A DNA stretch of 64,000 nt from Escherichia coli. Lineage in GTDB: Bacteria; Pseudomonadota; Gammaproteobacteria; Enterobacterales; Enterobacteriaceae. Every line of letters starts with the position of its first letter. Positions within the stretch are counted from its first letter, which is position 1. The stretch lies in assembly GCF_009931435.1 (NCBI RefSeq), contig NZ_CP043414.1; one strand, 5' to 3'. Positions 51,860 through 57,758 of this stretch are shown here, in pieces. The notes under the pieces are model-generated. The model was not told the origin of the DNA and did not search any database. It saw only the letters and a program-made list of their open reading frames with translations. The position numbers and the translations under genes were made by a program.

Positions 51860-51883
51860 GCTGTCAGTTCGTAAGTCAGAAAG

Positions 51884-51910
51884 CCGCCGACAAGTTCGGC
51901 GGTTTTTTTT
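51884..51910 (+). terminator. Rho-independent terminator of the nuo operon
   Basis: ccgccga-caagt-tcggcgg hairpin followed by 8 T. Confidence 0.8.
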
Positions 51911-51926
51911 GGTGCCCTGACCCCCA

Positions 51927-52430
51927 TCACCCAACAATAACCGTCAGCGCATGATTCCCTTGCCGCAGCATACGTCGATACGCGCTAATCAGCTTTTCCA
52001 TATCGAGCATGATCGAAGCAAAGAGTTGCCCCTCTAACTCTTCTGAAAAGGTTACTCCCGGATAAATCTCCATTTCATTGAGTCGTTTAATGGAAAACTG
52101 TTTACGCAGCACATTTCGGTCAAGAGCTTCCAGTCGGTCGATTGTCGCGGCTAACTCCTGATTCCAGGTCAATCCCAGGAATCCATCTATGCCATCTTCG
52201 AGGCTGTGTTCACCAAGCACGGCACGACTCAGCGGATCATTCTTCGCGGGATCAAAAGCAGAGGTGCCTGTCAGCCCAAAGTGTAAAAAATCCCAGCGTT
52301 TATCAATATCCAGTCGGCGTAATCCTGAAAGCGTGTCATGTATATTATCCATCAAAGGTTTTTGAGTAGACTCAAGAAGTTGGTTAATCTTTTCTGAGTC
52401 AATTTCTGCAAAATAGCCAATCATTCCCAT
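51927..52430 (-). CDS. yfbM: DUF1877-family protein
   Basis: 167-aa ORF; size and position consistent with yfbM. It lies 67 bp from the nuoN stop in this strain. Confidence 0.7.
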   Translation of the reverse strand: MGMIGYFAEIDSEKINQLLESTQKPLMDNIHDTLSGLRRLDIDKRWDFLHFGLTGTSAFDPAKNDPLSRAVLGEHSLEDGIDGFLGLTWNQELAATIDRLEALDRNVLRKQFSIKRLNEMEIYPGVTFSEELEGQLFASIMLDMEKLISAYRRMLRQGNHALTVIVG

Positions 52431-52532
52431 TTTATTTTCCTCCGTTGAATTTCATGTTTCGCATCTTAAAACAGACGAGGGAAAATAAAATGTACATGTC
52501 GCTTTTTCTGGACCCGCCTCGAGAAATTTTTA

Positions 52533-53510
52533 TTATTTACTGTTGTATAACAAAGTTATAACCCCATCCACTACCTGAGCCATTTTCTGATAATTCAATC
52601 TGTCTGCGGTATCACCGGGCAAGTGGTATTGTTTATTACGATAAAAAGCGGTGTCGGTAATCATTACGGCGGGAATATCGTGTTGCCAATAATTAAGGTG
52701 ATCAGAGAAATCAATACCGGGAATAAACCCTGGGGCATTCATAGAATAAACAGATAAATCCTGAGATGACAACAATGCCGCTTTTAGCTGACGAACGGCG
52801 TTGATATCCTGCATTCTGCCGACCACGGCAATAAAGTCTCCCCGATCGGGATAAAGCCAGGACATTGCCGGGTAAGGGTAATCCTGACTACCAGGCGCAG
52901 AGTCGTAATAGCCAATCATCTCCAGCGCTATCATTAATCTAACTGGACGCTCAAGCGAAGCTGCATGTACCGCGCTCCCCATTTCATCGCTACGAAAGAA
53001 GGGCGGTTCTTCCGACGCATAGGCGACCAGCTGCACGCCAGTTTTCGGTGCTTGCTGCTGTAACAAACGTGCCAGTTCGAGTAATCCTGCCACGCCGCTG
53101 GCGTTATCATCCGCGCCCGGCGTATAGGTCAATTGATCGTTTTCATAACTGCTGACAGAATCATAGTGCGCACCAATAATAATCAGCGGTCCATCGGCAG
53201 GACCATAATCAGCAACAATGTTTTTGTAGGGACCTCCCGTAATGGGGACGTCCTGCGCGGTAACGCTGGCACCGCTACTGATAAAGACCTCTTTTATATA
53301 TTCTGCGGACCTTTTCAGATTATCAATATTGTCGGCACTACGGGGATGCACAGTTTGTGTAAGATAACGAACTGTTTTTTCTAATTGCTCAGGACTTGTG
53401 TGTCGGGGCGTTGGCGGTAATGCATTGACCCAGGGTTGGTAAAAAATAATCAGAGGGAGTGAAAACAGAATTAATATAATAAAAGCAAAGTTTATTTTTT
53501 TCATATGCAA
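52533..53510 (-). CDS. yfbL: Secreted M28-family (aminopeptidase-like) zinc peptidase
   Basis: 325-aa ORF with N-terminal signal/anchor (MHMKKINFAFIILILFSLPLIIF); M28 motifs IIGAHYDS and ASEEPPFF. Confidence 0.8.
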   Translation of the reverse strand: MHMKKINFAFIILILFSLPLIIFYQPWVNALPPTPRHTSPEQLEKTVRYLTQTVHPRSADNIDNLKRSAEYIKEVFISSGASVTAQDVPITGGPYKNIVADYGPADGPLIIIGAHYDSVSSYENDQLTYTPGADDNASGVAGLLELARLLQQQAPKTGVQLVAYASEEPPFFRSDEMGSAVHAASLERPVRLMIALEMIGYYDSAPGSQDYPYPAMSWLYPDRGDFIAVVGRMQDINAVRQLKAALLSSQDLSVYSMNAPGFIPGIDFSDHLNYWQHDIPAVMITDTAFYRNKQYHLPGDTADRLNYQKMAQVVDGVITLLYNSK

Positions 53511-53641
53511 ATTATTAATGGGTTGCGTTATTGAATCATTATTTGTTATAGGTTTCGATATTGTATTTTATTAAGATTAGCAGGATTATACAAAGAGTAT
53601 ATTTTATGTCTGGTGCCTGAGTTTATTTAAAAGGATTTTAT

Positions 53642-55369: not shown

Positions 55370-55439
55370 TGACTTTTTAGCAAACTATGTTCGATCAGTC
55401 AGCATATTTGCTGACTGGTCGAATTGACTAACAATGATG

Positions 55440-56654
55440 TTAACTTACTCTTTTGCCTGATGCTCTATTTTGGGGTTGTGAGTGTTTTATTTCTAAGTCT
55501 CTATAATAATCATTGATATTTGCATCGCCATATTTATCTAAATAACAATTTCTGTTTACCTGTCGATGTTGAAAATCAATTTCGTACTGCTCTTCTGCTG
55601 AATATTTTTTAAATCTGTCAGCATAGTTTTTTAATAACGTATAGGGAGCGCTGTCAGAATTGCTTTCCCTTTGTTCAATTACTTCTTTGGCTGCCATGCA
55701 CACAAATGCACCGCAACTTTGGCTTAAGTATTGCTGAAGATCGGCATGTAAAAATGTTATCTCTTGTTCAGTTAAATGATCTGTTATATTCTTATTATTC
55801 GGCATTTCCCCCATGAATTTAGAATTGAAACTATTAATGACACGCTTAAGTGAATTTTCTTTATCATGGCCTAGTGCACGTAATGAGTTGAATATGACGC
55901 ATTTTATTTGTTGTGTGTTATTTTTTTCATTAACTATTTTTTGTAGCGAAACTAATATCCAGTGTCCGCCAGTATTTATGGGGAATAACTGGACTTCTTT
56001 CGGCCATGATGGATCGCTCTTAATATTATCATTGAGAGCGATTTCCAGGTAAGTGCTGTTGGAATCGGGGAGGTAGAGACCAGTAGGATAATTGACTTGA
56101 GTATTTTTTGCATTAGCGGCGATCTTCTGAAGATAGCAATCTATTTCATCCGTGGTTAATTGACGATTTTTATCCCAGAAGTTTGTACCATCGCTCAGTT
56201 CATTATTCTTATCATTTAAAAGTACCTTTGAAAGCGACTGTTTTTCTGATATGAGAGGAATGTCCTCACCGATAATTGTCATTAATTTCGAAGGGGAGAA
56301 TAGTTTTTTGAACAGGAGATTATCTGAATTATGTGATTTGAGGGGGTGTTTGGTTGCGGTATGTGCCAAATTATATAATTTTAAACAGGCATTTTTTATA
56401 AGCTTGATAATCGATAGGGTATCATTTGTTGGGTTTCTAACAATATGGTAAAGAATATCTTCAGCTTTTTTTCCAAATTCATCATAACCTAACGCAATAT
56501 TATGCAGTAACTCAATGCTTTCTTCATCTCCGGATAACGCTGTTTTTTTTAAAGACTGCAGTAATTCCTCGGTCACAGTAAATTTTTCTGCAAATGTCTG
56601 ACAGAGTTGGGTTTGAGATAATTGACAATAATTGCTGACAACTGTAACCATCAT
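55440..56654 (-). CDS. elaD: CE-clan (Ulp/SENP-like) cysteine protease / deubiquitinase
   Basis: 404-aa ORF, markedly AT-rich; His in GGHWILVS and Cys in QSCGAFVCM in the expected CE-clan order. Confidence 0.8.
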
Positions 56655-56800
56655 AGGCTCCTTTTAGTTGCAAAGATTGTGCTGAATGAAGATAAAAAGA
56701 GGCAACTTATTGCTCTGAATATAGTGCGTGCGGAGATGAATAAATATCAAAAATCGCTCAATATGCCCGTGTGGGTGGATATATGTGGCGCGGGTTGCGA

Positions 56801-56830
56801 TAACAGGGCAAGTTTCGCCCTGTTTTAGTA
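56801..56830 (+). terminator. Orphan plus-strand terminator-like hairpin in the elaD-rbn intergenic region
   Basis: acagggc-aagtttc-gccctgt hairpin followed by tttt on the plus strand; no annotated plus-strand gene upstream. Confidence 0.35.
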
Positions 56831-56840
56831 GGAAGCAGAG

Positions 56841-57758
56841 TTAAACGTTAAACACGGTGAAATCATGCGCCAGTTCAGTCGCCGGGAAAATTGACCTGCA
56901 TTCACGTAACAGGTGCTGACAACCTTTGTCATCATAGCGCGAGCTGACGTGGGTAATGATTAGCTTACCGACTCCAGCCTCACGGGCCAGTGTCGCAGCC
57001 TGGCGTGTAGAGCTATGACCGCGACTATTGGCTTTGGCTTCCATGGTTATATCCAGCGTCGCTTCGTGCACCATGACATCGACACCTTTAGCCAGGTCAA
57101 GTGCGGCATCGCAGGGGCCGGTATCGCCGAAAATAGCGAGCGCTTTACCTGGCACTGGAGCAGCTAAGTAATCTGCGCCGTTAATCTGCCTTCCATCTTC
57201 CAGCGTGATTGTTTTGCCCGCTTTTAATTCCTGAAACAGTGGGCCAGGCGGCACGCCAGCAGCTTTTAATGCCTGGGCATTTAATGCACCCGGTTTATCA
57301 TGTTCTTCAATACGATAGCCATAACATTCCAGTGGGTGTACCAGCGGATAAGCGGTTACTTTGCGCAGGCCATCATCGAAAATTTCGCCAGCGCCAATTT
57401 CGACAATTTCCAGCGGATAATCGGTCCATGAGCCGCTAATCCGCAGCGCAGTCTCCACAAATTCACGGAGACCTTGCGGACCATAAATCGTTAAGGGTTG
57501 GACAATACCAGACATAGAACGACTGCACAGCAAGCCGGGTAAACCAAAGAGATGATCGCCATGAAGATGGCTGATAAAAATCTTGTCCAGTTTTCCAGGG
57601 TTAAAGGCGGTATGCAGTAGCTGATGCTGGGTGCCTTCACCGCAGTCAAACAACCAAAGCCCGCTCTGGGTCGGATGTTGCAGGTTAAGCAATATTGCCG
57701 TGACATTGCGCGTACGGGTTGGCACACCGGCTGAAGTACCTAAAAAAATTAATTCCAT
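56841..57758 (-). CDS. rbn: RNase BN / RNase Z (metallo-beta-lactamase fold)
   Basis: The ORF-track frame is 311 aa; start chosen at [13 protein letters not shown] (305 aa). Zinc motif HLHGDH. Confidence 0.85.

Follow-up and report, generated by a model that had tools for sequence, protein, structure and literature searches.

How did a gene for a deubiquitinase come to sit, with three AT-rich companions, inside a conserved segment of the Escherichia coli chromosome, and did the four genes arrive together? The question is raised by the gap between nuoN and rbn in a 64,000-nucleotide stretch of E. coli DNA (contig NZ_CP043414.1 of RefSeq assembly GCF_009931435.1; hereafter the window, whose positions are used throughout), where yfbM, yfbL, yfbK and elaD separate the nuo operon from rbn and the men genes. 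A sequence-only reading had taken these four genes for a horizontally acquired or variable locus. Variable it is, and one part of it, a 1,494-base-pair (bp) cassette that carries elaD, is indeed inserted, but yfbM, yfbL and yfbK are old and syntenic in relatives. We consider it very likely that the gap between the operons is a composite, in which old resident genes, two of them (yfbL and yfbK) eroding, were joined by an inserted elaD cassette at a junction that has been used more than once. The genes, the activity of ElaD and the patchy distribution of elaD were already known; new details are where the cassette begins and ends, that an ancestral empty site survives, that the junction was reused and that several deletions arose independently, and the advance they represent is incremental.

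An inserted cassette among old residents

Insertion can be demonstrated at the locus for one piece of DNA only, the elaD cassette. Compared with chromosomes that lack elaD, homology stops at 55342, 27 nucleotides (nt) before the yfbK stop codon, and restarts at 56837, at the rbn stop codon. Between these breakpoints lie, in order, a new nine-codon end for yfbK (55343-55369), a hairpin, elaD itself, a spacer that holds a promoter, and a second hairpin; the whole stands where yfbK and rbn, converging by their 3′ ends, were separated by a 144-bp spacer. The 144-bp spacer of the B2 strain 83972 aligns base for base with that of four of five other Escherichia lineages, which share its hairpin; the E. 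albertii spacer is divergent. At the scale of the species, a query spanning the empty-site junction is fully covered in 915 of 5,426 complete E. coli genomes, at 99% identity or more in 914 of them, including the type strain ATCC 11775, and all remaining genomes match only the flanks of that query, which makes the site a clean two-state polymorphism.

The residents, in turn, are found where elaD is not. Outgroup loci comprised ten recovered by scanning species-representative genomes with YfbK (as exact peptide patterns), among them E. whittamii, E. albertii, Escherichia sp. E1V33, Escherichia sp. MOD1-EC7003, the divergent "E. coli" SCPM-O-B-8794 and Superficieibacter electus, and one Salmonella contig reached by a second protein search and contig look-up. 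The E1V33 locus starts inside yfbK and so informs only on what adjoins yfbK toward rbn. In the four Escherichia loci that reach far enough (E. whittamii, E. albertii, MOD1-EC7003 and SCPM-O-B-8794), yfbM, yfbL and yfbK or their remnants stand in the same order as in the window, with nuoN upstream wherever the contig reaches; in all five, yfbK directly adjoins rbn-elaA-elaB-menF. No elaD was found in these five loci, in Superficieibacter or in Salmonella. In Superficieibacter, the divergent yfbL-yfbK pair is accompanied by homologues of yfbN and yfbP, and yfbK is separated from rbn by a CheW-receiver (CheV-like) gene; Salmonella enterica reads nuoN, an 888-bp gap, yfbK, a CheV-like gene and rbn-elaA-elaB-menF. 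The two CheV-like genes, at 11496-12497 of the extracted Superficieibacter locus and 8832-9833 of the Salmonella one, encode proteins 83% identical in amino acid sequence. Since yfbK is syntenic in both genera, it is an old resident of the site; judged by gene order, yfbL and yfbM are at least as old as the genus Escherichia and no part of a recent import. Absence from the same site in relatives, as expected of an island, was accordingly seen for the 1,494-bp cassette only and not for the block as a whole. Moreover, since the space between yfbK and rbn holds a CheV-like gene, nothing or elaD according to lineage, this junction is a permissive, repeatedly refilled site.

How would such a gap have been assembled? 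On the account we favour, yfbM, yfbL and yfbK would have been long resident between nuoN and rbn, yfbL and yfbK being weakly constrained, poorly expressed and lost through recurrent internal deletions while yfbM was kept. The elaD cassette would then have replaced the 144-bp spacer in an ancestor from which most non-B2 E. coli descend, through recombination of an illegitimate or flank-guided kind that shows no trace of a mobile element, and would afterwards have been inherited mostly vertically under weak constraint, the junction between yfbK and rbn having been refilled repeatedly across lineages. Apart from short matches of the kind expected by chance, a repeat search found no direct or inverted repeats on either side of the block or of the cassette, and no insertion sequence (IS) ends were seen; there is no transfer RNA (tRNA) gene in 48-60 kb and no Rfam match, and Pfam searches of all open reading frames (ORFs) gave no integrase or other mobility domains. 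The mobility signatures of an island were thus not found.

The source of the cassette was sought through its protein. Among 1.84 billion representatives clustered at 50% identity, 83 match ElaD at E <= 1e-3, and these include one close full-length cluster, from Escherichia; the remaining full-length relatives, at most 34% identical, come from Providencia, a Plesiomonas metagenome-assembled genome and metagenomic contigs, and with relatives this distant no donor was identified. A search of clusters at 90% identity was saturated by E. coli variants and uninformative on origin, and ElaD-like genes were not found in the phage collection searched. Apparent plasmid matches were dismissed as mislabelled chromosomes, Salmonella sseL or a chromosomal segment on the plasmid pM172-1.1. 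This 126-kb IncFIA conjugative plasmid of a pangolin E. coli (NZ_CP058715.1) carries, at 111860-126040, the chromosomal run nuoN-yfbM-yfbL-yfbK-elaD-rbn-elaA-elaB-menF-menD-menH, either an F-prime-like capture or an assembly artefact, and accounts for the single plasmid match in the E. coli genome searches.

We also rejected the idea that the cassette arrived together with divergent flanks: the rbn tree is ordinary, and the odd elaA allele belongs to B2 strains, not to those that bear elaD. That allele is an observation in its own right. Directly to the right of the locus, elaA (57823-58284 in the window) exists in B2 strains as a version about 82.5% identical to that of other E. coli, as distant as the elaA of other Escherichia species (80-85%), while the adjacent rbn and elaB are 95-98% identical; it is a deeply divergent or imported allele.

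Composition, constraint and decay of the resident genes

The claim that the four genes are AT-richer than the flanking nuo and men genes was borne out. In 500-bp windows, the guanine-plus-cytosine content (GC) runs at 0.53-0.59 in nuo, drops to 0.33-0.52 over 52.0-56.8 kb and recovers in rbn and men, and 51860-56840 as a whole has 42.9% GC against 56% and 54% in the flanks (z-score −3.8, here and below relative to every window of the same length elsewhere in the 64 kb). The depression is unevenly shared. GC and third-codon-position GC (GC3) are.456 and.440 in yfbM,.458 and.439 in yfbL,.476 and.467 in yfbK, and.347 and.311 in elaD; GC3 is.46-.71 in the window's remaining genes. The 1,494-bp cassette, at.363 GC (z −5.0), lies below every other window of its size (minimum.417). 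The yfbM-yfbK part, at.457 (z −2.5), is no more extreme than the alaA-lrhA-nuoA regulatory region at 33.7-37.2 kb, itself core, which has.447 GC over 3.5 kb and 1-kb windows down to.39. As this region lies within 27000-51800, the nuo flank, which is present in 5,421 of the 5,426 genomes (here as in all presence counts, at query coverage of at least 80%), AT-richness alone is no marker of accessory DNA in this part of the chromosome.

Codon usage tells a similar story. By a local, leave-one-out index built from the window's other genes, elaD, yfbM, yfbL and yfbK rank 1st, 2nd, 4th and 8th lowest among 57 genes. Composition and codon usage are thus atypical, as they would be in an island, while the deviation of the yfbM-yfbK part alone is modest. 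For yfbL and yfbK, the most likely cause of the moderate AT-richness is weak selection acting on genes with low expression, and not foreign origin; the yfbK of Salmonella has 52.7% GC.

That the locus varies inside a conserved segment was equally upheld. A 7-kb query spanning it matches 5,425 of the 5,426 genomes and is at least 80% covered, with all four genes, in 1,607 (~30%). Taken singly, yfbM is present in 5,355 genomes (98.7%), yfbL in 3,292 (60.7%, with a partial copy in ~2,060 more), yfbK in 2,513 (46.3%) and elaD in 4,186 (77.1%), so that the variable presence expected of an island is seen for yfbL, yfbK and elaD. Nor do the genes travel together: ~2,580 genomes have elaD without yfbK, the reverse holds for 915, and almost all have yfbM. 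The window is not itself among the 5,426 genomes; its lineage is about 1% diverged, the nearest complete E. coli genomes being 98.9-99.0% identical over 25-kb core stretches.

Annotated genomes display these combinations as a series of architectures. Besides the four-gene type of the window, there are loci with yfbK deleted, with elaD absent (strain 83972), with yfbK deleted and yfbL internally deleted (O157:H7 EDL933, REL606), with yfbK and most of elaD deleted, and one with an IS-mediated loss of everything from nuo to rbn. In K-12-type strains, an extra yfbP-yfbO-yfbN segment, at least 80% covered in 946 of the 5,426 genomes, lies between nuoN and yfbM. In the chromosome with the IS-mediated loss, NZ_CP016546.1 (strain O177:H21), an ISVsa5 (IS4-like) element lies between alaA and a truncated rbn, which it abuts, and the lrhA-nuo operon and the entire yfb/elaD locus are absent from their usual position.

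Pairwise Nei-Gojobori comparisons among E. coli loci order the genes by constraint. The ratio of nonsynonymous to synonymous divergence (dN/dS) is 0.01 for nuoN, 0.07 for yfbM and elaA, 0.12 for rbn, 0.21 for yfbK, 0.28 for yfbL and 0.43 for elaD, with dS 0.07-0.13 throughout. In effect, yfbM is a constrained core gene, and its inclusion among the accessory genes by the sequence-only reading does not hold; yfbL, yfbK and elaD are weakly constrained, and elaD in addition shows indels and frameshifts. The dS of elaD equals that of its neighbours, which points to mostly vertical inheritance since its arrival; elaD entered the species at about the time when the sampled non-B2 lineages began to diverge.

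Most of the variability of yfbL and yfbK is not gain but deletion of old genes. Five distinct deletions were mapped on window coordinates (Table 1), and at least five hit yfbL or yfbK. The 326-bp yfbL deletion is frameshifting and removes residues ~88-196, and with them the metal-ligand motifs His, Asp and Glu-Glu; alleles that bear it are annotated as frameshifted pseudogenes (e.g., in O157:H7 EDL933 and REL606). The E. coli yfbK deletion retains the cassette-type 3′ end of yfbK and must therefore be later than the elaD insertion, whereas that of SCPM-O-B-8794 retains the ancestral end and is an independent event. Decay extends beyond Escherichia, for yfbK is listed as disrupted in some lineages of Salmonella Typhimurium.

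Alternatives and points of doubt

Several observations sit uneasily with a composite of old, eroding residents and an inserted cassette. First, strain DETEC-P793, with B2-like flanks, keeps a 111-bp remnant of elaD (haplotype F), which implies that the cassette also existed, and was then deleted, on a B2-like background, so that recombination or secondary loss must be part of its history; some clade I strains also carry elaD, judged by the names attached to search matches. Second, Salmonella has neither yfbL nor yfbM, and the age of both beyond Escherichia and Superficieibacter is unproven. Third, the low GC3 of yfbM alongside its strong constraint does not fit relaxed selection. Fourth, in yfbK-deleted haplotypes the yfbL-yfbK intergenic region and the 5′ remnant of yfbK are ~18-25% diverged from intact haplotypes, for which simple recent decay is insufficient. 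Finally, the samples themselves are limiting: the genome collection is skewed toward clinical lineages, and the frequencies of architectures come from coverage thresholds and not from a phylogeny; the outgroups are thinly sampled, with E. fergusonii, Citrobacter and Klebsiella left out; and for each gene no more than 4-7 sequences entered the dN/dS estimate. As to the diverged stretch, it corresponds to 53243-53771 of the window and lies between flanks 95-98% identical, and the yfbL 5′ end of haplotype C resembles the allele of SCPM-O-B-8794; an old haplotype or introgression could explain both.

Among the alternatives, the one that survives best concerns the cause of the erosion. It holds that loss alleles are kept because they protect from N4-like phages or another envelope-targeting agent, those of yfbL in the first place, those of yfbO where K-12-type strains carry it, and perhaps those of yfbK too; put more broadly, the polymorphism of the locus would be phage-shaped, YfbL and YfbO being host factors of N4-like phages and the natural yfbL deletion (~38% of genomes) a standing resistance allele, as would be the independent knockouts of yfbL and yfbK in other lineages of Escherichia and Salmonella. 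The lead comes from a single unreviewed preprint, in which Keio deletions of yfbL and of yfbO rendered K-12 resistant to phage N4, an effect that was complemented from plasmids and was N4-specific. The commonest natural yfbL allele is, moreover, precisely a deletion of the catalytic core, and yfbL or yfbK have been deleted independently in E. whittamii, SCPM-O-B-8794 and Salmonella lineages. Yet an earlier bulk screen for N4 host factors, by random-barcode transposon sequencing (RB-TnSeq) and CRISPR interference (CRISPRi), did not report yfbL or yfbO; YfbM, YfbL, YfbK, ElaD, YfbP, YfbO and YfbN had no match in PADLOC-DB at E <= 0.01; no mechanism is known that would connect an M28 peptidase with the receptor pathway of N4; neutral decay of a dispensable gene looks just like this, with deletions and a dN/dS of 0.2-0.3; and the large yfbL deletion may be a single old event, clonally inherited. 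Both the adaptive account of the erosion and the wider notion of a phage-shaped locus thus strike us as unlikely. If true, they would provide the first physiological handle on these orphan envelope genes and an ecological explanation for their decay. E. coli B was considered as a natural test of yfbL and N4 and dropped, since BL21 lacks nfrAB and is N4-resistant for that reason.

A second alternative reverses the direction of change at the junction between yfbK and rbn: elaD would be ancestral to Escherichia and would have been lost repeatedly, in B2 and in each of the other species. Deletions that remove elaD do occur, as the 111 bp left in haplotype F on a B2-like background testify; its dS, as large as that of its neighbours, indicates that it is not recent; and pseudogenised copies exist, both in an annotated locus and in published work (Wang 2025, PMC12575377). 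Independent deletions would not, however, recreate the same homologous 144-bp spacer, hairpin included, that B2 shares with four of the five other lineages (E. albertii being divergent), and on this ground the idea of repeated loss fails. The cassette differs from the empty site at both its ends, down to the last nine codons of yfbK, its 36% GC is foreign to the region, and Salmonella and Superficieibacter hold a CheV-like gene at the junction. We regard an ancestral elaD as quite improbable.

No better placed is the proposal that the entire yfbM-yfbL-yfbK-elaD block was acquired between nuoN and rbn as one genomic island, which we judge highly improbable. The proposal draws on the variability of the locus, on 42.9% GC against 54-56% and on four genes among the eight lowest of 57 in codon usage, and it fails because of synteny, uncoupled presence and absent mobility signatures: yfbK is syntenic in Salmonella and Superficieibacter, and yfbM, yfbL and yfbK in other Escherichia, all without elaD; yfbM is core and constrained and the presence patterns of the four genes are uncoupled; no integrase, tRNA gene, direct repeats or IS ends were found; and the GC of Salmonella yfbK is ordinary. 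Least probable of all is that YfbK, YfbL, YfbM and ElaD form one functional module of the envelope or of host interaction, as their clustering, the divergent yfbL/yfbK pair kept from Superficieibacter to Escherichia and the two proteases among their products might suggest, for the genes are uncoupled in presence, differ in age and orientation, encode products of different predicted compartments (ElaD and YfbM lack a signal sequence, YfbK is a lipoprotein and YfbL has a hydrophobic N-terminal segment), and YfbK homologues in Bacteroidota have neither yfbL nor yfbM nearby.

The composite gap also invites comparison with a familiar class of loci. Small "genomic islets" and hot spots of integration or replacement between conserved operons are known in E. 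coli. Like them, the nuoN–rbn gap holds low-GC DNA at a fixed position among core genes with alternative contents, both between yfbK and rbn and between nuoN and yfbM (yfbN, yfbO and yfbP, or nothing); unlike them, most of the AT-rich DNA here is old and undergoing deletion, and there is no tRNA gene, integrase or flanking repeat. Neither a composition indistinguishable from the flanks nor identical conservation was found, and the view of the locus as variable stands, although its outline has to be redrawn. It is also not the only accessory-looking part of the window, as had been supposed: positions 1-25000 show presence/absence variation as well, and the compositional dip of yfbM-yfbK is matched in the alaA-lrhA-nuoA region. 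The 1-25000 stretch is at least 80% covered in one place in only 4,805 of the 5,426 genomes. Some genomes are missing its first ~3.8 kb or contain insertions of ~2 kb, and short repeats within it, probably of the repetitive extragenic palindromic (REP) type, match 5-32 places per genome (median 16).

The encoded proteins and their setting

The gene identities and domains read from the window (a DUF1877 protein, an M28 peptidase, a vWA protein and a CE-clan protease) were confirmed by Pfam and RefSeq, with coordinates agreeing to within a few bases, and the RefSeq annotation of homologous E. coli loci uses identical gene names. The corresponding genes of K-12, b2269-b2272 (elaD, yfbK, yfbL, yfbM), have the same order, orientation and cassette boundaries and are 94-98% identical per gene at the DNA level; b2273-b2275 (yfbN, yfbO, yfbP), by contrast, belong to the K-12-type strains and not to the window. 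The features of the locus are collected in Table 1.

Table 1. Features of the nuoN–rbn gap and deletions projected onto it (window coordinates)
Feature	Coordinates	Strand	Evidence or remark
nuoN-yfbM spacer	51860..51926		K-12-type 2.56-kb yfbP-yfbO-yfbN segment would sit between 51907 and 51926; absent here
yfbM, DUF1877, 167 amino acids	51927..52430	-	PF08974 4.5e-34; PDB 1RYL 4e-107
yfbL, M28 zinc peptidase, N-terminal hydrophobic segment	52533..53510	-	PF04389 1.9e-26; annotated ATG start 53504
yfbL/yfbK divergent intergenic (promoter) region	53511..53641		very AT-rich
yfbK, vWF_A + VWA + YfbK_C	53642..55369	+	PF12450, PF00092, PF12034
elaD cassette, 1,494 bp, 36.3% GC	55343..56836		homology to the empty site ends on either side
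Palindromic hairpin in cassette, between converging yfbK and elaD	55390..55423		15-nt arms, 4-nt loop; 16 pairs in fold
elaD, 404 amino acids, intact	55440..56654	-	ElaD_SseL_N + Peptidase_C48
rbn-elaD spacer (186 bp)	56655..56840	-	56655-56836 is cassette DNA
Second hairpin, just past rbn stop	56802..56824		fold −16.7 kcal/mol on - strand
rbn (RNase BN/Z), conserved right-hand anchor	56841..57776	-	then elaA, elaB, menF in every genus examined
Deletion, yfbL	52917-53242		326 bp, by alignment breakpoints; haplotype E, the commonest E. coli haplotype; intact here
Deletion, yfbK	53772-55331		E. coli haplotypes C and E (elaD present); intact here
Deletion, yfbK and most of elaD	53550-56543		
Deletion, yfbL	52638-53375		E. 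whittamii
Deletion, yfbK	53761-55228		divergent SCPM-O-B-8794 lineage

Transcription of the cassette is partly documented. In K-12, a constitutive RpoD promoter for elaD was mapped between rbn and elaD (genomic SELEX table, PMC3946193). The first hairpin folds at −26.5 kcal/mol on the + strand and −20.2 on the - strand and probably acts as a bidirectional terminator for the converging genes; consensus scans for promoters and terminators yielded no more matches than shuffled sequence did.

ElaD itself is identical to WP_105287761.1 and aligns at 95% amino acid identity to ElaD of EDL933. It scores 429.3 bits against the NCBIfam equivalog NF008812 (cutoff 250), exceeds the gathering scores of PF22103, PF22102 and PF02902, and combines an N-terminal VHS-like domain with a C48 catalytic domain (match to the SseL structure 5HAF at 1.4e-26), with no signal sequence. 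Its catalytic cysteine is residue 314 in QSCGAF (C313 of K-12), the same as in K-12 and EDL933; the GGHW histidine motif is present, and the asparagine of VIFNSL is, by alignment, the putative third member of the triad. E. coli ElaD is a ubiquitin-specific protease whose C313S mutant is inactive (Catic 2007, PMC1847702), and it was placed in one subfamily with SseL and the ShiCE of Shigella, dedicated deubiquitinases that bind ubiquitin through a VHS-like domain at the N-terminus (Pruneda 2016, PMC4961225); the window protein shares the VHS-like plus C48 layout and the QSCGAF motif of this subfamily, with its equivalog score above cutoff. A preference for K63 linkages and redox sensitivity are reported in a 2026 preprint. 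Considering that its orthologues are 94-96% identical at the DNA level, the ElaD of the window is predicted to be a ubiquitin-specific, K63-preferring cysteine protease.

SseL, only 28% identical to ElaD, is a type III effector of Salmonella pathogenicity island 2 (SPI-2) encoded elsewhere in the Salmonella genome, whereas ElaD also occurs in laboratory and commensal strains; neither a secretion route nor a host target of ElaD is shown in the literature covered, including PMC1847702 and PMC4961225. Published work has elaD absent from B2 or extraintestinal pathogenic E. coli (ExPEC), present in about two thirds of E. coli and pseudogenised in some (PMC1847702; Wang 2025, PMC12575377). The 4,186 carriers and 915 empty sites among our 5,426 genomes agree with this pattern. 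Those papers score the gene only, and the text searched makes no mention of cassette limits, the empty site, the synteny of the neighbours or the erosion of yfbL and yfbK.

Of the residents, YfbM matches PDB 1RYL, a structure of unknown function, and has no signal sequence. YfbL belongs to the M28 family, with 93.5 bits against PF04389 (cutoff 21.3) and intact motifs HYDS (113), DDNASG (132), SEEPP (164) and DH (268). By analogy to AAP-type enzymes (the aminopeptidases of Aeromonas and Vibrio), the zinc ligands would be H113, D133, E165/E166 and H269; with these M28 leucyl aminopeptidases, LapA among them, YfbL has in common the fold and the His, Asp, Glu-Glu and His ligand motifs, and its motifs predict a membrane-anchored or periplasmic zinc aminopeptidase.

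YfbK begins with MRNKNIIMLLMSSLILSGC, whose lipobox LSGC, with Cys19, marks it by motif as a lipoprotein, a predicted localisation that comes from this motif and not from a dedicated predictor. A Gln-rich linker leads to a VWA domain (PF00092, 4.6e-22) with an intact metal ion-dependent adhesion site (MIDAS), DTSGS at residues 222-226; this domain, with its DxSxS MIDAS, is what YfbK has in common with Bat-type and other bacterial VWA envelope proteins. By sequence, the VWA part alone has solved relatives (BatA/BatB, ITIH4 and alpha2delta-1), and none was found for the vWF_A N-domain or YfbK_C. YfbK is thus predicted, from motifs, to be a metal-dependent ligand-binding lipoprotein of the envelope. 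For both YfbK and YfbL, the likeness to Bat-type and M28 systems is at the level of domains only (1e-7 to 1e-12), with scores far from the NCBIfam equivalog cutoffs. The earlier remark that the functions of yfbK, yfbL and yfbM are unresolved agrees with the literature searched, in which no functional studies of yfbK or yfbM were found.

Two further observations concern the wider relatives of these genes. The Bacteroidota homologues of YfbK, in Sphingobacterium (7481-11398) and Parapedobacter (7593-11491; positions in the extracted loci), are 45-48% identical to it, have CarboxypepD_reg in place of the lipobox, and sit divergently beside a gene for an extracytoplasmic function (ECF) sigma factor; the ORF beyond the sigma gene has CarbopepD_reg and TonB_C in Sphingobacterium and no Pfam match in Parapedobacter. 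This context hints at an envelope-signalling setting for the YfbK family. The second concerns yfbN, which lies outside the window, at 5482-6198 of the extracted K-12-type locus: its product and that of its Superficieibacter homologue (6215-6931) give weak, sub-threshold UBA-like matches (PF14555 UBA_4 at 21.4 bits against a cutoff of 21.8; PF19026 UBA_HYPK at ~17 bits). A UBA-like domain within a few kb of a deubiquitinase gene is curious and may be chance. Farther to the right, the menF of the window (58723-60021) is only 93-94% identical to that of all eight E. coli loci compared, in which nuoM, nuoN, rbn, elaA and elaB are 97-99% identical; it is a locally divergent allele of the window's lineage.

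What, then, does the redrawn locus mean for the biology of E. coli? The composite history corrects a tempting reading of the neighbours of elaD as one acquired unit, and yfbL and yfbK illustrate how long-resident, dispensable envelope genes decay by repeated deletion. The gene elaD encodes a biochemically characterised, eukaryote-directed deubiquitinase that is puzzlingly present in commensal and laboratory E. coli, and the compact cassette, together with an untouched site in B2 and other Escherichia, offers clean isogenic contrasts for the function of ElaD.

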